From positions 768,001 to 832,000 of the forward strand of contig CAWHHI010000020.1 of assembly GCA_963829055.1 (NCBI GenBank): DNA of 64,000 nucleotides. The letters run 5' to 3'. Below the pieces are notes generated by a model. It worked only from the letters and a program-made list of their open reading frames with translations. It made no database searches and was not told the origin of the DNA. Below, one piece after another: positions 1 to 14,107 of this stretch. This DNA comes from an uncultured Gemmatimonadaceae bacterium (GTDB taxonomy: Bacteria; Gemmatimonadota; Gemmatimonadetes; Gemmatimonadales; Gemmatimonadaceae). Numbering within the stretch: the first letter of the stretch is position 1; each line of letters begins with the position of its first letter. The translations under genes were made by a program, and so were the position numbers.

Positions 1-612
1 AGCAAGCCGGTGCGGCTGCTCAGCGCGCCGAATCACGAGCTGGTGTCACCGGCCGTCGTTCGCGTGGACCAGGGGAACTGGCACATGTGGTCAGTGAATG
101 CGGGCGGGGCTGGATGCTCGAGCACCACCACGGCCGTCGATCATCGGACGTCCACCGATGGTCTGCACTGGTCCGCGCCGAAACCCGTGGGCCTCACCGG
201 TCCAGACGAAGAGTTCACGCCCTGGCATCTCGACGTGCTGTGGGTGCCCGAGCTCAGCGAGTTCTGGGCGTTGTACAACGAGAAGCCGGCTGGCTCGTGC
301 GCGACTCCCGCGCTTCGGCTGGCCACGAGCCCGGATGGCATCACGTGGACGACGCGACGAACGCCCGTGCTGCGCGCGGGGGTGAATCCCGAGTTCAAGG
401 ACATCGTGTACCGCTCGACGTTCGAGTACGACGCGCGGACCGACATGGTGACGCTGTGGTACTCGGGAGCGCGGAGGAGTGGCGATGACTGGACGTGGAG
501 CGCCGCCGTTGAACGCCGGTCGCGCCGCGCGCTGTTCGAACTGGTCGACACGCCGGAGCCGTTGCGTCGGAGCGCCGCAATGCGCGCCGCCGTGTTGCTG
601 AACGCGCCGTAG
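1..612 (+). CDS. C-terminal part of a five-bladed beta-propeller/glycoside hydrolase-like protein (runs off left edge)
   Basis: Repeated S-x-D-G-x-x-W (STDGLHW, SPDGITW), PWHLDV and YRSTF motifs; GC-rich codon usage. Confidence 0.55.
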   Translation, partial: SKPVRLLSAPNHELVSPAVVRVDQGNWHMWSVNAGGAGCSSTTTAVDHRTSTDGLHWSAPKPVGLTGPDEEFTPWHLDVLWVPELSEFWALYNEKPAGSCATPALRLATSPDGITWTTRRTPVLRAGVNPEFKDIVYRSTFEYDARTDMVTLWYSGARRSGDDWTWSAAVERRSRRALFELVDTPEPLRRSAAMRAAVLLNAP

Positions 613-837
613 CTCCGATTCCCTCGATCCAGTCCATTCACCGGCGCGACGTGCCGGGCTGCTGGAGATCGAAGTGGCGTCCGCACCACGGACGTGTCTC
701 GCGATTGCACGTCTCTGTCCTGATCCGGGCAAATTCATCGAGGTTCGCCGTCGCATGTTGCGCGCGGAGCGATGTCGTCGCACCGTTAGCGACCAAACCC
801 TGCAGTTGGCTCCCGGCGCCTACGGAGACCACCACTG

Positions 838-1236
838 ATGTCCACTGCGCAGGTGTTCGTTCGGATTGTCGCGATCGCGTTGCTCGTGAGCGCGGTCGAC
901 GCGATCTCGGGGCGTGTACTTCAGGCGTCGCCTGACCCGAGTCTCGTGCTCTCACTCGGTGCTACGGCGTGGGCCTCCTATCGCCTCGCTGAAGCGGGAC
1001 AGGCGCGATTGTCGTTCCTCGCCGGCGTGACAATGTGGACGGTCTACATGACGGGGTTCGTGGTGTGGGCGTGGCTCCTCGTCGGCTGGAACGGGTCCGT
1101 GCCCTGGCACCCGCGCAGCACCACATGGATGGTTGCTGTCGCAGCCGTGGCGCCGGTCGTGGCCATCGTGGCGCAACTGGCCGGAACGGCCCGCGCGAAA
1201 GTCGCCAAGTCACCCGACCGCGCCCAGCGCGTGTAA
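838..1236 (+). CDS. Hypothetical membrane protein (about 4 TM)
   Basis: GGAG RBS upstream, four hydrophobic stretches; convergent with the Yip1 gene. Confidence 0.6.
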   Translation: MSTAQVFVRIVAIALLVSAVDAISGRVLQASPDPSLVLSLGATAWASYRLAEAGQARLSFLAGVTMWTVYMTGFVVWAWLLVGWNGSVPWHPRSTTWMVAVAAVAPVVAIVAQLAGTARAKVAKSPDRAQRV

Positions 1237-1263
1237 CGCGCGGTCCGTCAGGAGCGCGCAACA

Positions 1264-1920
1264 TCACCGGAGCAGCGCGACGCAACACGCGGTGAGCGTC
1301 GCGGCCGCGAAGCACGTCAGAACGATCAGCGCAGACTCAGCGCCGCGCGCCTGAGACGCCGCGCGAACACCGAGCCACGTCAGCACGGCGGCATAGCCCG
1401 AGCGGACGTCGGCCTCGACCGCGAGCACGTGGAGCACCGAGGCCGGGCCACCCGTGACGAGAAAGCCGAGGTTCGTGAACGGCGGGTTGCGGAGATCCAC
1501 CGCTGCCGACTCGGGCAGGAGCGCTCCAGCGACGCCCGCAATCGCAACCGTGGCGAGCGTGTACGCGAACGTCACGTGCATCGTTATGCACCAGGCGCTC
1601 GTCCATGTGAGCCGAGCGGTCCAGAGCATCGACGTGACCCACAGCAACGTGGTGGCAACCGCGACGAGCGGCATGAGGGTGAACACCTGGAACAGCACGC
1701 CCGCCAACACCTTCGCGGCGTTCGTCTCCGGCTGATAGAACACGAACAAACTCCCGAACCGGAGCGCGACGAGCGCAGCGAACGCCACGGCCCACACAGG
1801 ATGCGCGTCGGTGCCCTGGAAGGCGGCAGCGGGATCGATCACCACGTTCGCGAGTCGGTCCCACGCGCCCACGCGCCGGGCGACGTCAGGCGACGGTGAC
1901 ACGGTAGATACGTGAGTCAT
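1264..1920 (-). CDS. Yip1-family membrane protein, last gene of the lanthipeptide cluster
   Basis: Start MTHVST; 'RLANVVIDPAAAF' resembles the Yip1 N-terminal motif; multiple TM segments. Confidence 0.6.
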   Translation of the reverse strand: MTHVSTVSPSPDVARRVGAWDRLANVVIDPAAAFQGTDAHPVWAVAFAALVALRFGSLFVFYQPETNAAKVLAGVLFQVFTLMPLVAVATTLLWVTSMLWTARLTWTSAWCITMHVTFAYTLATVAIAGVAGALLPESAAVDLRNPPFTNLGFLVTGGPASVLHVLAVEADVRSGYAAVLTWLGVRAASQARGAESALIVLTCFAAATLTACCVALLR

Positions 1921-2044
1921 TGCGTGCCGTTCTGGTGGAAGTGGCAACTCATCGTTAGGCGTGACCGAGTCGGACGCCTCTACGAGCCCTACACGAGCGA
2001 CTACACGACAGCCGGATTCCGTGATGCAGCCGCTCGCGCAGTCA

Positions 2045-2341
2045 CTAGCAGCAGCCGATGGACGATGCGGCACAGGTGCCGTGCCACAGCGTCGTGTCGC
2101 ACGCGCCGCAACTGACCTGGTTCGATAGCGTCACCAGAATCGCGCCGGCGCACGGCAAGCTCGTCGTGCAGATCCCGGTCTGCGTGAGGATCGCCACTGC
2201 TCCGCCGGCGGTCTCACCCAGATCCTCGTCGTCCAACTCGATCGTCCCGACTGGAGACGGCGCGAGTCCCTCTGCTTCGTCGCCAAGCAACGCGCGGTAC
2301 TCGATGTCCTTCCATGCTCGTGTCGTGCGAGAGTCGCCCAT
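2045..2341 (-). CDS. lanA: Class II lanthipeptide precursor A2 (mersacidin/lichenicidin-type leader), 98 aa
   Basis: Leader RAWKDIEYR...PSPVGTIELDDEDL..AGG; 51-aa core with 7 Cys and 13 Ser/Thr; GGAG RBS before ATG 2341. Confidence 0.9.
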   Translation of the reverse strand: MGDSRTTRAWKDIEYRALLGDEAEGLAPSPVGTIELDDEDLGETAGGAVAILTQTGICTTSLPCAGAILVTLSNQVSCGACDTTLWHGTCAASSIGCC

Positions 2342-2495
2342 GGTGTACTCCGAGAATGGTCGATGGTTCACAAATGCGCTTCGTGGGAATGCTCTGTCGT
2401 TTCGCTGCTCCACTGCCGGAACGCGAAGTACAACTGGCCAAGGTCACGCACCTCCGGCGTTAGGGTGGCAAACGGCGACTGACAGTCGTCACCGG

Positions 2496-4767
2496 TCAGA
2501 TGGAAGCCCGCCACCCCCGGTGCCCGTGCTGCTCCATCCAACGACCGCGAGCGAGAGCCGCGCCGGCGCCGGGCCGCCGATCGCTCGCGAGTGAGCCCTG
2601 CTCCGCCGCAAGCGCGGCGTACGCGCCGCCGAGTGCCGTCAACTGCTCGTGCGTACCGCGCTCGACGACGCGTCCGCGCTGGAGGAGAAGGATCTGATCC
2701 GCCGACCGAACGGCCGTCAGGCGGTGCGCGATGACGACGCGGGTGCAGCGCAACTGCTCGAGGTTCGCGATGAGGCGCTGTTCTGCCGCTACATCCAGGT
2801 GACTGCTCGCCTCGTCGAGCATGAGGATGTCCGGGCGCGACACGAGCGCACGCGCGATCGCGAGACGCTGCCGCTGCCCACCGGAGAGGTTGCCACCGCT
2901 CTCGGCGAGCCGAGTCTCGTAGCGCATCGGCATGCGCTCGACGTCGTCGTCGAATCCGGAGAGTCGCGCCGCCTCGATGACCTGCTCGAGCGGTGCGTCC
3001 GGCGCGTTGAGCGCAATGTTGGAGCGGACCGTGCCTCCGAAGAGGGCGACGTCCTGCAGGACGATACCGCACCGTCTCCGCACGACGTGCGGGTCGAGCT
3101 CCGATAGCGGGATGCCGTCGTAGCGCACTTCTCCGGCGGATGCCTCGTAGAGCCCGAGAAGCAGCATGAGCATCGTGCTCTTTCCAGAGCCGGTCGGTCC
3201 GACGATCGCCGAGCTTTTCGCCGGGCGCGACGGAGAAGGACACATCGTCGATGATCGCCGGGCCGTCGGGCGCAAAGCGGAACGTGAGCCCGCGGACATC
3301 GATCGATCCTTCGAGGTGCGGCGAGATGACGTGCACCGAAGGCGCGGCGACACGCGATTCCGGCTCGGCGTGCAGAACGTCGATGAGGCGCTCGATGTAG
3401 GCGTCGAGAAGTTGCAGCTGCTGCGAGCTCTGGACGAGCGCCATGAACGGGGTGAGGAACGACGCCGCGAGGGCGCTGAGCGCCAGCATCGTTCCAAGGG
3501 GAAGTTTGCCCGCGAGCACCAGCGACGCGCCGTACCACAGCAGCGCGAGCGGCGACGCCGATCGCAGCACACCTAACGCGATGTCCACTTTCGCGGTGAA
3601 ATACCCGCGCTCCATGAACACCGCGAGCTGGCGTCGAAACAGCTCGATCCACCGGTCGTACGCGCGGGCCTCTGCCCCCGCCGCCTTGAGATGCGCGATG
3701 CCCTTCATGAGCTCGACGAGACAGCTCTGCTCGTCCGACTTCGCCGCGAGCATCCGCTGTCCGAGGTCGCGGAGCCGAGGCAGCGACGCGAGCACGAGGG
3801 CGGCCTGCACCACGGACAGGCCGACGACGAGAAGAGCGAACGTCGGCGCGATGACGAGGAGCACCACCAGGTAGAGCAGCGCGAACGGCCCGTCGAGCAT
3901 CACCGACAGCAGCTGCGTGGTGAGGATGTCGCGGATCATCGTGTTGCTCGACAGCCGCATGAGCAGGTCGCCGCTGCTGCGCCCCTGGTAGAATCGGTAC
4001 GGCAGCCGCAGCAGGTGGTCGAAGAAGCCTTCCGTGAGCCGCGCGTCGAGGCGCGTCTGCAAGCGCAGCATCACGGCGCTCCTGACGAACGACGTTGCTG
4101 CTCGCGCCACAACCACGATCCCCATGCCTAACGCAATGACCGACAGCGAGAGCGACGAGCCCGGCGGTGCGACGTCGTCGACGATGAGCTTCGTGAACAG
4201 CGGCATGGCGAGGCCGAGCGCCTGGAGCAGCACCGACCCGGCAATGATCTGCGCCAGTGCGCCCTGCGCACTCAAGTCGTGGAACATTGCCGCGAGATAG
4301 TCGAGCCACAGCGGCACTCGGCGCCTGGGGCGTGAGACGAGACCCGGGCCGGCTCCGCACACGAGCGTCACGCCACTGTAGCCAGCCAGGAAGTCTTCGG
4401 CGGTCAGGATCTGCCGGCCGAGCGCGGGATCAATGATCGTCACGCGCTTGCTGCTCCACCGCTCCACGACGACGAAGTGCCGCGCTTTCCAGTGCGCGAT
4501 GGCCGGGAGGGCTACCGTCGCGAAGTCCGCCGGTGCGACGGCGACGGGTTGCGCGATGAGACCGAAGCGCTCCGCCACTGTAGAGAGGGCGCGGAGTCGG
4601 ACCCCATCGCGACCGCCGCCGCATAACGCGCGACACTCGGACGCGACGTCATGCACGCCGTGCGCGGCGAGCACCATCGCCAGACATGCTGCTCCGCAGT
4701 CGTCCGCGCCGAGCTGCTGGATGAAGGGCACGCGTCGCCGCGTGCGGGTCGCGATTCGCTGCGTCAT
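2496..4767 (-). CDS. lanT: Peptidase C39-containing ABC transporter, one frameshift near 3210
   Basis: QQLGADDCGAACLAM (C39 Cys), HWKARHFVV, TM domain, Walker A GPTGSGKST, LSGGQRQR, LDEASSHLD; ATGA overlap with lanM stop. Confidence 0.9.
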
Positions 4768-7700
4768 GGCTCGACTCGCGCCAGTGGGTTTCCGCGAGGT
4801 GCCTCCAACGAGAGCAACGACGGCACCTGTTGCGTGGCCCCGATGCGGAGAAGGCCGTAGCCGATGCCCGCGAGACCCATCATGAGTCCGGGCGTCTCGA
4901 CGCCGCCTGGGATGCCGCACCGCCAATCACCTCGAGCGATGCGTTCGACCAGGCGAGACGACTCGAACGCCAGCCGGCTTTCCCACGGGCCGCGGGTCCC
5001 TAGCTCGCGCGCGCGAAGGAACAGCTCGAGGTTGCCCAGATCGCCGTGACACAGTGAATCGTTGGAACCGAAGCCGGCGCTGACGGTGGAGGAGAGCGCG
5101 GTCTCGAGCTCTGTGCGGGACGCGCACGCGAGATCGGATGTGGCGTCATGTTGCAGCGTGATGAGTCGGGCCAGACCGACGCCGGGCGCGCCGTGACACC
5201 ACGACCACATCATGGCCGGCGGTCCTGGCGGCGCAGCGCGATCGAGGATCCGGTAGTCGGGCCAGTTCTGCCGATCGGAGTCGAACGTGTCGCGCTCGTA
5301 GCGCAACGCGGCGTGAGCAACCGCAGCGCACCGAGGATCGTCCAGAATGGCGCCGGCCGTAAACAGCGCGGCGGCAATGCCTGACGCGCCGTGCGAGAAG
5401 CCCGTGAGCGGTTGCGTGTGCGTCCAGCGATGACTTCCAGGCGAGACCACTCTCGATTGGGTGGGTGGAGTCGAGCAGGCGCTGAACCGACACGCGCATG
5501 ACATCGTGCACTGCCGCACCTGGCCGCGCGCGGTGCAGCGCCGCGAGCGCGAAGATGAGCCCAGCGACTCCGGTGATGATGTCCAGCTCACGATCGACGG
5601 CCGCCTCCTCACGCACGCGAGCCGCTACGGCGTCGGCGAAATCGAGGAGGGCATGATCTTGCCACAGCACGCCCACGTGGGAGAGCGTGTAGATCGCCCC
5701 GCCCAGTGAGCCGAACGCCCCGATCGCGCCTGGCGTCAACGCGCCGCTGCTCTGTTCCGGATCGAGAAGGAGACGGGCACGAGTCGTTACCTGCTCGAGG
5801 ACGTCGCGCGAGAGTTGCTCGTGCTCACGATTGCCGGTGATGTCAGCCAGGTACGCGAGGAAGAGCGCGACGCCGAGCGTGCCGCCATACAGATCCGATC
5901 CGATGGGCTGGATCACCCAGTCCCGCTCCTGCGCGAGCGTGAGCCCGAGCCAGCTCAAACGCGAGCTCTGTCGGAGCGCCAGCGCGCTAATGCGCCGTGC
6001 GATGCGCTCAGCCGCGCCGATGCACGCGTCACGGGATGGCGGCGCCGACGTTGCGTTAGGCACGGCGCGTGGGGCCGGTGCGGAGCCGGACACCGCCACG
6101 TGGCGACCGGGCGCCAAGCCCACGAGCGAGGCGCGGACGACCCATTGTTGCCGGACCAGGTCGTCTTCCGAAAGTGACGTGACGCGCGCAAGAGCTGCGT
6201 CGAGTCCCGACTGCTCGAAGAAGTCCGCGATGCACGCGCCGTGCGTCGTCAGCAGATCTCGGCTGTCAGGACGGCTCGTGAACAGCGGGACGTCACCGGC
6301 CACGAGGTCCGCGTGCTCGTAGGCGACGACGGACTCCAGCTCCGGTCGCGACGGCACGGCCACCCACAGCCGATCCAGCAGCCGATCGCGGTCGAGCGCG
6401 TCCCTGAGGACGTCCGGGTGGTAGCTCTCGAGCAGGATCAGCGCGTACTGGCGCGTGGGGCGCAGCACGACGCGAATGGGCGCCGCGGCAAAGCGGCGTA
6501 TGGGACCGCCGTCGGCCAGCAGCTCGTCGCGATGGCGCAGGAGCAGCCGGTACGTGGACGTGAAGCCAGCCAGGATGCGATCCACGTGATGCGTCGGATC
6601 GATGATCTCGTTGCCTAACGCTGGGCGGTTGTTGGACGCGGGGAGATCAACGAAGTCGCGCACGAGCCGCATCTCGTCAGTGCCCGCGCCCACCACCACG
6701 GGGAACCGGTTCGGCGTCCGCTGTACGCCACCACCGCCCACCGCGCTCATGTCGAGGCCAGACGACTCGCGATTGCCGAACGCTCGGAAGGGCAGCACGC
6801 CGGCGCGCAGCACCGAATGCTGCAGCGCGCTCCAGCCGATCCATTCCGGGTCATCGATCGGGGGCGCGTGTGACCGTTCGCGGATGACACAGCGCCTCGA
6901 GGTCGATCAACATCGGATGCTCGCCGGACGCGATGACGTTTTCGTAGTGGAAGTCCGTCGCCTCCAGCGCGTGCAGCAGCGCGAGGTACGACCCGAAGCG
7001 TTCGTAGAAGCGCGTCACCTCATCGGGCGTGGTGCACGGCTCCTGCGCCGCGAACTCGGCCCAGCCATGCGTCTCGGAGCTCACTGTGCGCACTGCGTGC
7101 AGCGGTGGCGATTGCCCGCGCTCGTTCGCCCAGGCCACGAGCTCCGAAAAACACAGGTCCACCGCCAGCGAGCGTGGCTTGTAGACGATGCGCTTCCCCG
7201 ACGAGAACGCGGCGATCAGGACGGACCGGCCGTGACGGTGTGTGTCACCGGCGCCCGCGGTGAGCTCGGTCAGTTGTCCGAGATGCTCGCCACCGGCAAG
7301 GTCCGCCGACAACCGCCCCGCGTCACGCGCGAGGTGTTGGAGAAACTCGGCCGCGAACTCCTCCCAGTAGCCGGACGCCGTCACGATCAGCCGCGCGAGC
7401 ACCGGGTACTCCTCGAGAATGCGCTGACGCAGATCGGTGGTGCGCAGCAGCCGCGCGAAGTCGGCGTAGCGTGCTTCGGGCGTGTCGCCGGCGAGCCTCC
7501 CTTGAACGCGCGCAACGTTCAGCTCGAGGATCCCGACTTTCACGGATTTGTTCACGAGCTGAGCCCAGAGCGCCGGCTCGAACAGGCGGGTCGCGTGTTC
7601 GGGATCGAACGGCGCGTCAGGGTGCGCTTCTCGAATCCGTCGCGCTCGCTCGAACAGCGCGGTCAGCCCGGCGATGACGAACGGTCCAACGAACGCGCGC

Positions 7701-8167
7701 GCGAGCTCGGCCCCGGCCGTATCCTCGACGCCAGAATCGCCAGTAGCCGACGCGGCGTTGCCGTGGGCTTGAGCGCGGCCAATCGCCGCGACCCAGCTCG
7801 GCGGCGCGTCGACGATCGCGCTCGGACCGTCGCTCGACTCCGCGAGCAGCGACGTGAACTCCGCTTCGGTGAGTGCGTCGAGACGTAGTCGCCGTTCGAG
7901 GATCTCGGGGCGATCGAACGGCCGTTGCTGGCGCCATCGATCGAGTCGGCTCGATTGCCGAGCGTCGGTTGCAGCCTCCGTGGAGAGTGCGGTCGATCCT
8001 CTGGCGTCGCAGATCTCGTCAGGTTCGTGTCGCTGCCTGGCGCGAGCGCGTTCGGTGAGCGTGAACGCCGGAGACCACCAACGCGTGGGAGTAGTGCGGA
8101 GCATGTCGGTTGGCTGTGTGGGTTGAATCGAGGCGCGTCGGTCCGACGCGCCTCGCTCGCTGCTCAT
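4764..8167 (-). CDS. lanM: Class II lanthipeptide synthetase, frameshifts near 6850 and 5420
   Basis: Dehydratase motifs VYKPRSL, TDFHYENVIA..PMLIDLE, RVVLRPTRQY; LanC-like GFSHGASG, WCHGAPG, SLCHGDLG spread over three ORFs. Confidence 0.93.
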
Positions 8168-8180
8168 CCGTCAACCGCGA

Positions 8181-8471
8181 TCAGCACAGAGATGCGCCGG
8201 TGAGAACGATCGTGATGCAGAAGCAGGTGCAGTACGGGAACCCGGCGGTGACGTCGCAGTACCCGGACTGGGTAATGCCCTTGCAACAGCCGAGCGTCTC
8301 GAGGTACTGCGTGCCGTCGACGTTGACGGGGGAGCCGCCCGCGGCGAGCCCGAGCTCGTCGTCGGTGACCTCGATGACGCCAACGGGATTGGGCGGAAGC
8401 GTGGCTGCGTCGCCGAGGGCGGCGCTGTAGTCCGCATCCTTCCACGCGCGGACGATCTGATCAGGTGTCAT
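8181..8471 (-). CDS. lanA: Class II lanthipeptide precursor A1, 96 aa
   Basis: Leader IVRAWKDADY...PPNPVGVIEVTDDEL..AAGG; 50-aa core with 7 Cys and 10 Ser/Thr; GAGGAG RBS. Confidence 0.92.
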   Translation of the reverse strand: MTPDQIVRAWKDADYSAALGDAATLPPNPVGVIEVTDDELGLAAGGSPVNVDGTQYLETLGCCKGITQSGYCDVTAGFPYCTCFCITIVLTGASLC

Positions 8472-8576
8472 CGGTCTCCTCTTTCCTCAGAGTGGGCGGA
8501 GTGAAGCCAAGCACGGTGGCTCGGCGGAAAGGCCGAAGACGCGGGGGCACGCCGCGGCTTCGTACCGGCGTGGCCG

Positions 8577-9071
8577 TCAGGAGCGCGGCAGTGCGTAACT
8601 CGCGAGCGAACGCGACCCAAGCGCGGCAGTAGCGGCGTAGTTGGAGCCGGCGGCGAGTGACAGACAGTGACCCTCGTGGCACCGCGATAGGTGAGCGACG
8701 ACTTTCGGACCGCCCGTGTCGACGCTCGTGATCACGAGCTTCAGCGGGTCACTTCCGCCCGTATCGATGGCGGCAACCTGGCCGGGTTTCACGTACGCCC
8801 GCGCCGAGGATGGCAGCATGAGCAACGGCGTTAGGCCGTCCGCCGCTGACGGTGATGCGACGACGACGCCGCGTTCGGTCCGCGGCACGCGGGTATGTCC
8901 GAGCGCCAACGCCGCGACGACGGTGGACAGCACGAGGGCCCACAGCAGCACGATGTAGGGCGAGCGCAGCAGGAGCGGCAGCGGCAGGTCGCCCTGCGTG
9001 ACTCGCTGTTGCTGGATGAGCAGTGCGCGGGTGTTTCGCTGCTCGTGCGAAGGGCGGAGCGTTGTTGTCAT
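8577..9071 (-). CDS. Short HlyD/membrane-fusion-like accessory protein
   Basis: Single N-terminal TM followed by 'VPRTERGVVV' and 'VKPGQVA', as in bacteriocin secretion accessory proteins; no long coiled coil. Confidence 0.5.
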   Translation of the reverse strand: MTTTLRPSHEQRNTRALLIQQQRVTQGDLPLPLLLRSPYIVLLWALVLSTVVAALALGHTRVPRTERGVVVASPSAADGLTPLLMLPSSARAYVKPGQVAAIDTGGSDPLKLVITSVDTGGPKVVAHLSRCHEGHCLSLAAGSNYAATAALGSRSLASYALPRS

Positions 9072-9082
9072 GCCCGACAGCA

Positions 9083-9100
9083 AGGCATCTCCCGGGCCTT
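9083..9100 (-). promoter_or_regulatory. Candidate sigma-54 -24/-12 promoter for the lanthipeptide operon
   Basis: Minus strand AAGGCCCGGGAGATGCC gives GG-N10-GC spacing, an imperfect match to TGGCACGNNNNTTGC; adjacent to a GAFTGA activator gene. Confidence 0.35.
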
Positions 9101-9203
9101 GCGACGCGAGCCGCTAACTCACTGCGGCCGCGTGATTTCCGAAATCGTGCGTTCGTTCGTTAGGCGTCACGTAACGCGTGGCCGGCTGCGGGGCGGCTGT
9201 CAC

Positions 9204-9234
9204 TTCACACCGGTATTCACACGGGCGTTCACAC
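9204..9234. promoter_or_regulatory. Three direct repeats TTCACAC at a 12-bp period, candidate activator binding site
   Basis: TTCACAC at 9204, 9216 and 9228. Confidence 0.45.
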
Positions 9235-10135
9235 CGGGAGTACCGCTCCGGCGGCGCGCACGTACTCGTGAATCGTCTTGCGTGACACGCCGAGTCGCGC
9301 GGCCGCTACCGTCTTGTTCCCGCCGGCGTCGGCGACGGCCTGCAGAACGAGCGGTGACGTCAGCGATCCGCGTCGCGTGCCGCTGGCTGTTCGCAATCGC
9401 ACGAGGTGGCCCGTGCAGTGTGAGAGCGAAATGACGTGTGCGCCGGCGGCGTCGATGAGCAGTCGCTCGACGGCGGCGACGAGCTCGCGGACGTTGCCCG
9501 GCCACGCGTCGTTTTCCAGTGCGCGGAGGAGCGCGTCATCGAACGTCGGCGGCCTGTCAGCGTAGCCGCAGCGCGGTGCGCGGACGCGCGATGACGTGGC
9601 GTACGAGACCCGCGATGTCCGACACACGTTCGCGGAGTGGCGGGATGCGGACGGCGAACGCGCTGATGCGATCTCTCAGGTCCGCGAGAAATCGATCCTG
9701 CTCGACGAGTGTGTCGAGGCCTTCGTTCGCCGCGAAGATGAAGCGGACGTCACCACGGACCGGGCGGTCGCTGCCGACGGGATAGAAGTCGCCGTCTTCT
9801 TCGACGATGCGGAGCAGCTTGCCTTGCACGAGCTTGGAGGCCTTGCCGATTTCGTCGAGGAACAGGGTGCCACCGGACGCGGAGACGATCGCGCCGGCGC
9901 GTGCCGAGTCGGCGCCGGTGAACGCGCCTTTCGCGTGGCCGAACAGGTCGGAGCTGACGAGCGCGTCGTCGGCCGCGGCGAGCGAGAGCGTGCGGAACGG
10001 ACGGTTCCGTCGCGGCGAGAGGTCGTGGACGTGTCGAGCGAGTACGGTCTTGCCGCACCCGCGCTCACCCTCGAGCAGGATGCACGTGTGATCGTGGGCC
10101 GCATAGCGGCGCAGCTGCGCGAGCGCGTCGCGCAT
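9229..10135 (-). CDS. Sigma-54-dependent enhancer-binding protein (AAA+ and Fis-type HTH, no sensor domain), frameshift near 9580
   Basis: GERGCGKT, FGHAKGAFTGA, GGTLFLDEIG, WPGNVREL, GGNKTVAAARLGVSRKTI. Confidence 0.88.
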
Positions 10136-10350
10136 GGGCGCGGCGTCGCTCTCGAAGACGTGAGGCGGACGTGCGGTGGCGATAGGCGAGCCCTGTATGA
10201 TCGACCGATCAATCTCGCCTGCGACGACGCGCCGCGTGTGTCACAACTCGGACAGAGTCGGCCGAAATCGAGACACTCGCAGACGAAAGACGGCAGGACG
10301 TCAGCAAATCGGAGCGCTCTTCGACGAGACGAAGAGACGGCTGTGACAGC

Positions 10351-11997
10351 CTACTGCGCGATCTTCCGCACCGTCGGGTACTCGATGCCCAGCTGCTCGA
10401 GATACGTCTTGTACTTCTTCGGATCGTAGTAGTACTTCCGCATCTCCGGCCGGTACTGCGCCATGATGTCCGTATTGAGCCAGATCGGCGGCTTGTCCGT
10501 CGGCGCAAAGAACGGTTTGTACTTCACCTCTTTCGTCTGCACGTTCTCGAAGTAGTCTTTCGCGTCGACCACGATCTGCGGCGTGAGCAGGATGTCGAGC
10601 ACCGTCATCGCCTGCACCTTCGCGCCCGCCACCACGCCCTTGTGCGCGATCGGCGTCGCCATCGAGATCGCGTTCGCCCAGTTGTGCCCGGGCATGCCCG
10701 GAATGTTCGACGGATAGTTCAGCGTGATCGTCGGCACGTTCCAGCTCACGTCGCCGATGTCGTCCGAGCCGCCGCCCATGCGCGTCGCCTCGTTCACCGG
10801 ACCACCCAGACGCCCGGGACGCGAGCTCAGGCCGCTATCGGGAACGCCTAACTCGCGCTGAATCCCCTTCGCGAGCGTCTGGTCCTTCTCGTCCCACGTC
10901 GGCATCCCGACCTTCTGGATGTTCTGATACATCGCCTCGGCGATCGGGCGCGAGAAGTGTCCGCTCCAGCCCGAGCCGACCATCATGATCGTGTCGATCT
11001 GGACGTCGGCCATCATCGCGGCGCCCTGCGCCATCTTCTTCGCCGACTCGAACATCGCCATCGTGCGCGGATAGTCACGCTCGCGGAAATAGAACCAGAT
11101 GCTCGCCGTGCTCGGCACCACGTTAGGCTGGTCGCCGCCGTCGGGAATCACGTAGTGCGACCGCTGCGGCAGCTCCATGTGCTCGCGGTGGAACTCCCAC
11201 GCCTGCGCCATGAGCATGACCGCGTCGAGCGCGCTCTTGCCGCGCCACGGCGCACCGGCCGCGTGCGCGCTCGAGCCCTTGAACTTGAAGATGGCCGAGA
11301 TGAGCGCGTTGGAGCCGGACTGCCCCCAGGACACGCCTAACGTGTTGCCGACGTGCGTGAACAGCGTGACGTCGACGTCCTTGAACACGCCGGCCCGCAC
11401 GAGGAACGCCTTGCCGGCCATCTGCTCCTCGGCAACGCCCGGCCAGAGCACGAGCGTGCCGGGGATCTTGTCGCGCTCCATGATCTTCTTCACGACGATG
11501 GCGGCGGCGACGTTGAGTGGCATGCCGGAGTTGTGCCCTTCGCCATGGCCCGGCGATCCCTGGATGAACGTGTCCTTGTAGCCGACGCCGGGCTTGTTGC
11601 CGGCCTGCGGGATGCCGTCGATGTCCGAGCCTAACGAGATGACGGGCTTGCCCGACCCCCACTTCGCGACGAACGCGGTCGGTATGCCGGCGACGCCGCG
11701 CTCGACCTTGAAGCCGTTCTGCTCGAGGATCCCGGTCAGGTACTTGGACGTCTCGACTTCCTGCATGCCGAGCTCGCCGAAGGAGAAGACCTGATCGACC
11801 ATCTCCTGGATCATCTTCGCTTTCGCGTCGATCTCCTTGGCGGCTTCAGCCTTGAGGGCGTCGAGCTGCGGGGTGCTCGGATACTTGTACTTGATGGAGT
11901 CGGCGGCGTTACCCGGCGCACCGCGCTGAGCCGTGGCGGGAGCGGACGCGAGGATGACGAGGGCCGAGGCGGCCAGGGCGACTGAGAATCGGGTCAT
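10351..11997 (-). CDS. Secreted M20-family amidohydrolase (AbgB-like)
   Basis: Signal peptide; GHGEGHN, AEE, AHAAGAPWRGKSALDA, GGDQPNVVP, GGSDDIGDVSW. Confidence 0.85.
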   Translation of the reverse strand: MTRFSVALAASALVILASAPATAQRGAPGNAADSIKYKYPSTPQLDALKAEAAKEIDAKAKMIQEMVDQVFSFGELGMQEVETSKYLTGILEQNGFKVERGVAGIPTAFVAKWGSGKPVISLGSDIDGIPQAGNKPGVGYKDTFIQGSPGHGEGHNSGMPLNVAAAIVVKKIMERDKIPGTLVLWPGVAEEQMAGKAFLVRAGVFKDVDVTLFTHVGNTLGVSWGQSGSNALISAIFKFKGSSAHAAGAPWRGKSALDAVMLMAQAWEFHREHMELPQRSHYVIPDGGDQPNVVPSTASIWFYFRERDYPRTMAMFESAKKMAQGAAMMADVQIDTIMMVGSGWSGHFSRPIAEAMYQNIQKVGMPTWDEKDQTLAKGIQRELGVPDSGLSSRPGRLGGPVNEATRMGGGSDDIGDVSWNVPTITLNYPSNIPGMPGHNWANAISMATPIAHKGVVAGAKVQAMTVLDILLTPQIVVDAKDYFENVQTKEVKYKPFFAPTDKPPIWLNTDIMAQYRPEMRKYYYDPKKYKTYLEQLGIEYPTVRKIAQ

Positions 11998-13539: not shown

Positions 13540-13815
13540 ATGTACTTCGAGTGGGACGTCGAGAAAGCGGAGGAGAACTTCGTCAAACATGGCATCGATT
13601 TCGAGGACGCCATCCGGATTTTCGACGGGCCGACAGTCGAGGGCGAGGATGGCCGGCGAGACTACGGGGAAACCCGGATGTGGGCGATTGGCGCGTTAGG
13701 TCCTCGTCTCGTCACGGTGATCTACACCATGCGCGGCGACGTCTGCCGCATCATCTCCGCTCGAATGGCTTCGAGGCATGAGCAAAAAACGTATCGTAAG
13801 AGTCAAAGCGGGTGA
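13540..13815 (+). CDS. brnT: BrnT-family ribonuclease toxin
   Basis: FEWDVEKAEENFVKHGIDFEDA...RDYGETR...RIISAR. Confidence 0.92.
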   Translation: MYFEWDVEKAEENFVKHGIDFEDAIRIFDGPTVEGEDGRRDYGETRMWAIGALGPRLVTVIYTMRGDVCRIISARMASRHEQKTYRKSQSG

Positions 13816-14107
13816 GCAACGCCGCGGGCGCACGGACTTCGCGCGGCTCGACCGGATGACGGATGAAGAGGCCGAGGCAGCGGCGTTATCGGATCCGGAC
13901 AATCCGCCGCTGACGGACGAATGGCTCAAGAACGCAAAGTGGGTGGAGCGCCCACCGAAGGAGGCGATCTCCATTCGCATCGACGCGGACGTGCTGGCGT
14001 GGTTCCGCGCGCAGGGGAGCGGCTATCAATCGGCGATGAACGCGGTGCTGCGGTCGTACGTCGAGCATGCCCGCGTCGCCCGTGGCCGCCGGCCATCCGG
14101 TGGATAG
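13778..14107 (+). CDS. brnA: BrnA antitoxin
   Basis: AALSDPDNPPL; KEAISIRIDADVLAWFRAQGSGYQSAMNAVLRSY; overlaps brnT. Confidence 0.9.
   Translation: MSKKRIVRVKAGEQRRGRTDFARLDRMTDEEAEAAALSDPDNPPLTDEWLKNAKWVERPPKEAISIRIDADVLAWFRAQGSGYQSAMNAVLRSYVEHARVARGRRPSGG

Follow-up and report, generated by a model that had tools for sequence, protein, structure and literature searches.

Roseocin from Streptomyces roseosporus is described as a lanthipeptide system with one LanM enzyme (RosM, WP_010071701.1), two peptides with very different cores, and synergy of these peptides against Gram-positive bacteria (10.1101/464644). Its killing does not involve the classical lipid II motif, and how it acts is reported to be unresolved (10.1101/2025.10.27.684949). 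In this study, a class II lanthipeptide cluster was analyzed at positions 1264-10135 of a 64,000-nucleotide stretch (the window) of contig CAWHHI010000020.1, which belongs to the genome of an uncultured Gemmatimonadaceae bacterium (GCA_963829055.1; 7.78 Mb, 20 contigs, 86% complete). Because both published roseocin motifs were matched exactly at the right ends of its two precursors, the locus probably makes a roseocin-family two-component lanthipeptide. An earlier note on this DNA had proposed a class II lanthipeptide of two peptides served by a single LanM, in a lineage little studied for such products, and the presence of one LanM and two TIGR03898 precursors supports that proposal. The pair is probably a variant of a characterised family and not one unrelated to known peptides, since both roseocin-family motifs are present; the note had missed this closest system.

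The minus strand carries all seven genes of the cluster, and their order is the one already read by the earlier note: a sigma-54 enhancer-binding protein (bEBP), an adaptor-like open reading frame (ORF), lanA1, lanM, lanT, lanA2 and a Yip1-like gene. LanA1 (8471-8181), the alpha-type precursor, consists of a 46-aa leader ending in GG and a 50-aa core with 7 Cys and 10 Ser/Thr, and LanA2 (2341-2045), the beta-type precursor, of a 47-aa leader ending in GG and a 51-aa core with 7 Cys and 13 Ser/Thr. Both exceeded the TIGR03898 cut-off of 23.5 bits (48.2 bits for LanA1 and 31.8 bits for LanA2), and they were the only matches to this family in the source genome. Without modification, the cores would have monoisotopic masses of 5214.35 Da (LanA1) and 4985.32 Da (LanA2). 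The published roseocin-alpha motif, S/TxxxxTxGCC, lies at core positions 8-17 of LanA1, near the core N-terminus, and the published roseocin-beta motif, GS/TxxxxS/TxGCC, at core positions 41-51 of LanA2, at the C-terminal end. When each core was shuffled 200,000 times, the chance of a motif placed in this way was P 7e-4 for LanA1 and P 3.5e-5 for LanA2. The core lengths of 50 and 51 aa had been given correctly before, and so had the small overall similarity of the two cores, which barely align. What had escaped attention is a common 10-residue pattern, [ST]x4[ST]xGCC, which the two cores carry at opposite ends.

The modification enzyme LanM (8101-4764; 1,111 aa, CHG type) and the transporter LanT (4767-2499; 755 aa) are encoded by genes that overlap at the lanM stop and the lanT start (ATGA). 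In this assembly, lanM is split near 6869 and 5419 and lanT at 3211; two long contigs with about 98% identity to the window, L038 and L039, carry both genes unbroken. The L039 copy of LanM scored 899.9 bits on TIGR03897 and contains DUF4135 and LANC_like domains, and its LanT contains the Pfam domains C39, ABC_membrane and ABC_tran. All nine catalytic residues of CylM (D252, H254, K274, D347, H349, N352, D364, R506 and T512), whose roles are given in PMC4550811, were kept in LanM, and its zinc motifs WCHG and CHG assign it to the CHG type. The best match among solved structures was LicM2 (E 1e-117). With dehydratase and LanC-like domains, the catalytic residues, GG-leader precursors with Cys/Ser/Thr cores and a C39 transporter, the system belongs to class II. 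There is one LanM in the source genome; the fourth TIGR03897 match, on contig C11 (L011, G000:C11:463420-464619), spans the cyclase part only, a LanC-like domain with no dehydratase match. No LanP or LanFEG/LanI was found in the cluster or in the flanks scanned, which comprised 12 long frames within 16 kb on the left and, as far as 16.4 kb on the right, the M20 peptidase and 10 further frames; this agrees with the earlier reading.

Conservation was examined with 137 alpha and 20 beta homologues. The alpha set comprised 54 of the 56 sequences from a first search (two without a core were left out) and 83 new ones from a second, core-profile search, which leans toward the motif and from which 19 distant rows were left out. 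The S/T form of the alpha motif was present in all 137 sequences and its strict form in 93, and 19 of the 20 beta homologues had the C-terminal motif. Seven Cys were likewise found in 19/20 beta homologues, while most alpha homologues (126/137) had six, and the position of the seventh Cys of LanA1 (Cys37) is Cys in just 5% of the 137 homologues. A designed 7+7 Cys symmetry was ruled out by this last figure. The count of seven Cys in each core is thus right for the two peptides of the window; judged by the homologue sequences, it is a family trait for LanA2 only, and the 2 x 7 symmetry is incidental. The lipid II motif CTxTx[DE]C occurred in 0/137 alpha and 0/20 beta homologues. In all 36 beta and all 28 alpha pairs compared (pairs that are not independent), pN was lower than pS; purifying selection acts on both cores.

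The rings determined by NMR for Ros-beta are 1-5, 11-15, 16-22, 18-25, 24-32 and 29-33, and all of them save ring C are conserved in analogues (10.1101/2025.10.27.684949). LanA2 was mapped onto this list by eye, comparing residues and not rings, and the residues for the conserved rings A, B, D, E and F were all present. Ser/Thr at core positions 13, 30, 37, 42 and 47 and Cys 17, 34, 43 and 50 were kept in 20/20 beta rows, and Cys 51 in 19/20. By analogy with Ros-beta, LanA2 would form the rings T13-C17 (A), S30-C34 (B), T36/T37-C43 (D), T42-C50 (E) and S47-C51 (F) and would be without ring C. Ring A may be of the LL type, judging from the Dhx-Dhx-x-x-Cys pattern, which is linked to LL stereochemistry. 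Two further Cys of LanA2, 11 and 31, have invariant upstream Ser/Thr, and extra rings T6/T8-C11 and S26-C31 are likely. For LanA1, the predicted pattern is a bicycle near the N-terminus, in which T8 and T13 pair with C16 and C17, followed by T21-C26, T29-C35, T36-C39 and T41/T45-C50. A Cys two residues after CC, the partner in the roseocin disulfide, was not found in the alignment of the 137 alpha homologues. Because each of the six conserved alpha Cys has a conserved upstream Ser/Thr, LanA1 is likely to have no disulfide, the roseocin disulfide being replaced by thioethers.

The cluster was present in 4/6 genomes of the same genus and was not found in the other two, which are 88% and 92% complete. 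In this genus it occupies one conserved site, between an M20 peptidase and a BNR gene (L002, L003 and others). Among 400 genomes of the phylum, three carried the cluster, all in one other Gemmatimonadota genus (3/16 there). This second genus keeps only lanA-alpha, lanM, lanT, lanA-beta and the Yip1-like gene, and its LanM is 36-38% identical. There the cluster adjoins a tRNA-Phe gene (L020:12106-12179) or a phage integrase gene (L022:5742-6893), a setting which suggests an island. Next after the Yip1-like gene, the second genus has a gene for a conserved membrane protein of some 160 aa. In metagenomes, all 11 loci that were found by beta and span the whole cluster also had alpha, some of them being near-duplicates. 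More distant loci of unassigned taxa (GC 47-64%) carried the same motifs, and distant LanM clusters with roseocin-type motifs were L077, L080, L083, L084, L088, L089, L092, L096, L108, L113 and L117, with five precursors each in L089 and L096. The Yip1-like gene was also present in L077 and L080, and the mini adaptor in L077, L089 and L107. By database naming, one alpha homologue belongs to Gemmatimonas aurantiaca and a distant one to Pyrinomonadaceae. A beta-core profile run over 401 genomes from each of two other phyla gave three weak matches in Acidobacteriota and five in Chloroflexota, and neither leader nor motif was found at these loci. At one further locus, a 94-aa precursor (L099:79-410) has a motif of the alpha type shortly after the core begins and one of the beta type at the end; it adjoins a second precursor and lanM, and is possibly a fused or ancestral form.

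Several features of the surroundings were also recorded. A BNR/Ig-domain protein gene (10-612, plus strand) and a gene for a 132-aa membrane protein (838-1236, plus strand) converge on the cluster end; both are syntenic in most loci of the same type, which does not imply that they belong to the cluster. A BrnT-BrnA toxin-antitoxin pair is located at 13540-14107 (plus strand) of the window. The hexamer CCTAAC occurs 7,102 times in the whole genome, compared with 50-381 times for five similar hexamers.

The bEBP gene (10135-9229; PF00158, E 5e-46, and HTH_8) encodes an AAA+ domain with GAFTGA and a helix-turn-helix, with no N-terminal sensor domain, and rpoN is present in the source genome. Comparison of ten loci revealed a conserved non-coding element of 24 bp (9149-9172, minus strand), which was identical in eight of them, had three changes in the other two, and is single-copy in the genome at up to three mismatches. 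A GG-N10-GC sequence (9085-9098, minus strand), 13-14 nt 5' of the ATG of the adaptor-like gene, follows this element by exactly 50 nt in 10/10 loci. Because this spacing is fixed although the spacers have diverged, the 24-bp element is likely an activator binding site and GG-N10-GC a sigma-54 promoter, from which transcription is predicted to start near 9073. A sigma-70 promoter was considered and rejected, as none was found in 600-10400; the one terminator-like hit scored below the shuffle mean, and no promoter was found 5' of lanA2. Most loci also have a second, looser GTGA-C-GTGAC-like repeat some 35 nt 5' of the 24-bp element (at about 9197-9210 of the window, minus strand), perhaps a second activator site.

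The adaptor-like gene (9071-8577) encodes a mini periplasmic-adaptor-like protein of 164 aa with one transmembrane helix and a predicted adaptor beta-barrel. The ORF had no Pfam, NCBIfam or PDB sequence match and no match to a cyanobacterial HlyD, and Foldseek returned nothing at E 0.001. A model built from six sequences (pLDDT 78.8) was compared with 48,161 chains; a fold from a single sequence was of unusable quality (pLDDT 49). The top seven chains were periplasmic adaptors (BesA, ZneB, EmrA and MacA; Z 8.3-10.6), and for this predicted model the values against BesA and ZneB were Z 10.6 and rmsd 2.1-2.5 Å over 86-89 residues. Residues 62-152 align with the two terminal parts of the adaptor chains and leave out what lies between: in the model, the beta-barrel after the membrane anchor is present, and the lipoyl domain and the alpha-hairpin reaching TolC are absent. 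The label HlyD-like used previously therefore suits the predicted beta-barrel but not the hairpin and lipoyl domains. A full-length HlyD was ruled out on the missing sequence matches, and the 164-aa protein leaves no room for these two domains. The ORF measures 164-186 aa in three of the lineages but only 69-77 aa in the others, so that a TolC bridge of the usual kind is unlikely.

The last gene of the cluster (1920-1264) encodes a Yip1/YknW-like membrane protein of 218 aa with four hydrophobic segments. Its matches to Yip1 and YknW_fam (E 2e-4 each) were under the cut-off, and against the Atlas Yip1 clusters it scored 0.91-0.94. The gene lies no more than 500 nt after beta in 31/32 loci with sufficient downstream DNA. 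Yip1 proteins have been described in clusters for leaderless and for circular bacteriocins, where a part in immunity or transport has been suggested for them (PMC11580447), and YknW is described as assisting a MacB-type protective pump (PMC5985334). By analogy, the Yip1-like protein is a candidate immunity or accessory protein, with immunity as a lead only. A MacB/FtsX-type permease gene, in pieces, was observed 1-4 kb beyond the left edge of the window (L123:11126-13946, on G000:C20), and in L001 an FtsX gene is located on the other side of its cluster; such a permease is a possible partner of the Yip1-like protein.

From what was observed, namely the genes and motifs, the unbroken enzymes of near-identical contigs, the conservation and the purifying selection, we infer the following course for a roseocin-family system. 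The sensor-less bEBP would bind the element at 9149-9172 and fire the sigma-54 promoter (9098-9085). LanM would then dehydrate Ser/Thr and close thioethers on both peptides, giving beta a ring set analogous to that of the Ros-beta NMR structure and alpha an N-terminal bicycle with further rings and no disulfide. LanT would cut at GG and export the peptides across the inner membrane. Lacking the classical lipid II motif, the two would act jointly on the membranes of competitors, which are probably Gram-positive, and the producer would be protected by the Yip1-like protein.

Several observations weigh against this assignment. LanFEG is absent from the frames scanned, which counts against it, and lanthipeptides of Gram-negative phyla are seldom antimicrobial (PMC10027976). 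Both cores are hydrophobic and net acidic (3 D/E vs 1 K/R in one and 1 vs 0 in the other), whereas Ros-alpha has no D/E. The promoter in the window matches the sigma-54 consensus at 8/11 positions, the family matches of the Yip1-like protein are below cut-off, and no hairpin is predicted for the adaptor. In a quick tree of 35 LanMs, with RosM not included, LanM joined two Streptomyces LanMs via long branches. In addition, the [ST]x4[ST]xGCC motif was present in 19/55 distinct precursors of distant loci (loci chosen by beta likeness), so it is a widespread module and no proof of descent. Taken another way, the same lanthipeptides might not be antibiotics: staying in the periplasm or on the cell surface, they might serve in signalling or as part of the envelope, and the Yip1-like protein might be their receptor or escort. 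The acidic, hydrophobic cores and the lack of LanFEG would suit such a role, as would the single conserved genomic site within the genus and the predicted adaptor without a TolC-reaching hairpin, of which even the barrel is lost in many relatives. We regard this as unlikely, since the roseocin motifs and the strict pairing of alpha and beta fit a two-component lantibiotic, two of the six same-genus genomes showed no cluster, and tRNA-Phe or an integrase borders the cluster in the second genus. Mobile weapons often sit by tRNA genes or integrases. Less probable still is an independent two-peptide family that reuses the common bicycle, its roseocin likeness being convergent. The pattern is short, common to both peptides, found in many distant precursors and present twice in L099, and the gene order differs from that of roseocin, in which both precursors stand before lanM. 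Against convergence, the likeness extends beyond the motif to the Dhx-Dhx-x-x-Cys pattern of ring A and to the positions of beta rings B and D, the alpha residues after GCC match type-3 members, and both motifs are placed at the same ends as in roseocin, together with one CHG LanM.

The earlier note had noticed frameshifts in lanM and held that the cluster would be dead if they were real; we found breaks in lanT and in bEBP (at 9585) as well, so that in this assembly lanM is in three pieces and the other two genes are in two pieces each. Every break is a single extra base. The base at 6869 was missing in contigs of 3/4 other runs, that at 5419 in 4/4, and those at 3211 and 9585 in 3/4 each. 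That these contigs come from other runs and samples, and not from the source strain's own reads, is the point in favor of a cluster dead in this strain. On the other side, the window differs from L039 by 14 indels in 10.3 kb, of which 11 are extra bases in the window and which fall in coding and non-coding DNA alike, the pattern of an error-prone assembly; mostly the same indels were found against L038, and other genes of the source genome are likewise in pieces. In addition to the whole LanM and LanT of L038 and L039, bEBP is one open frame in L039 and has 307 aa in L001. The frameshifts of lanM (both), lanT and bEBP are likely assembly errors and the cluster intact, and a dead cluster is very improbable. 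Near-identical DNA was present in soil, rhizosphere and sediment runs.

If the roseocin-family reading is true, a common but hardly cultured soil phylum gains a defined antibacterial system. The series from a second phylum shows which residues are fixed: those of the GCC bicycle and of beta rings A, B, D, E and F are kept, and the disulfide and ring C are not. Such fixed and variable residues narrow down the likely active core of roseocin-type peptides. A cultured Gemmatimonas strain makes the system testable, and the Yip1 proteins are open to a direct immunity test. The chemistry and the enzymes of the cluster are of known kinds, and one related precursor had already been tabled in 2020 (PMC7268733). 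More tentatively, and at low confidence, roseocin-type two-component lantibiotics may form a large Gram-negative soil family built on a reusable [ST]x4[ST]xGCC bicycle, which opens alpha and closes beta, with a mini-adaptor or adaptor-less exit in Gemmatimonadota, a sensor-less sigma-54 switch and a Yip1 immunity factor. This larger reading is based on more than 130 alpha variants at 90% identity and on the more distant motif-bearing clusters.

Among known systems, enterococcal cytolysin (CylM, CylLL/CylLS), which had been chosen earlier for comparison, shares with this cluster one LanM for two peptides, the catalytic residues and the ring-A motif. It is a poorer model than roseocin, since CylM acts on two peptides that resemble each other, whereas the cores here are unlike. 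Cytolysin uses the protease CylA. No S8 protease was found in the cluster, and the seven S8 matches of the genome are all on other contigs. Lacticin 3147, haloduracin and lichenicidin have the same leader family, TIGR03898, but use two LanMs and the CTxTx[DE]C lipid II motif, neither of which this cluster has. A relation to actinopeptin was considered and rejected, as PMC13509491 concerns a different family. Within the phylum, the precursor of the Gemmatimonas aurantiaca T-27 LanM (WP_041265752.1) is beta-type with a C-terminal motif, as in the second genus, and its core is shorter than that of LanA2. It appears as one supplement table row in Walker et al. 2020 (PMC7268733), where no partner of WP_041265752.1 stands among the rows listed and the main text has no mention of Gemmatimonad-; the phylum is named within a broad class II group in PMC11251773. 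In the literature covered, from which subscription journals are mostly absent, no description of a roseocin-type family in Gemmatimonadota was found.

Core comparison with actinobacterial roseocin members was made by motif and by eye. Among plasmid sequences, the two best Streptomyces LanM loci showed no roseocin-type precursor under the filter applied. Type-3 members (Catellatospora and Micromonospora) come close in places: by eye, 8/10 residues of the LanA1 motif equal those of the Catellatospora alpha, and the beta C-terminus is of the GTC type; their clusters differ from this one in having two LanMs and a 9-Cys alpha (PMC10027976). A 7-residue stretch around ring A of LanA2 equals that of an Actinomyces beta, again by eye. 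Compared with roseocin itself (RosA alpha/beta, RosM, RosTp), the host is Gram-negative, the cores are longer (50/51 aa vs 35/33 aa), and the precursors flank lanM-lanT, whereas both roseocin precursors precede lanM according to the locus tags. LanA2 differs from Ros-beta in an N-terminal extension of 12 residues that contains a Cys, in another Cys and in the predicted lack of ring C, and LanA1 differs from Ros-alpha in having no counterpart of the C13-C33 disulfide and in its mostly conserved Glu and Asp. The Yip1-like gene stands in place of RosEFG, and bEBP, the sigma-54 site and the mini adaptor are additional. The type-2 features of roseocin, namely the C13-C33 disulfide pair, adjacent precursors before lanM and RosEFG, were not found in the cluster or, for RosEFG, in the flanking frames scanned, and the cluster is not assigned to type 2. 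What it shares with roseocin is one CHG-type LanM, a C39 transporter, TIGR03898-type leaders on unlike cores, the N-terminal alpha motif and C-terminal beta motif without a lipid II motif, as in the family definition of PMC10027976, and the residues of beta rings A, B, D, E and F in register. On these sequence features, the cluster is likely a variant of the roseocin family, which has so far been described from Actinobacteria only.

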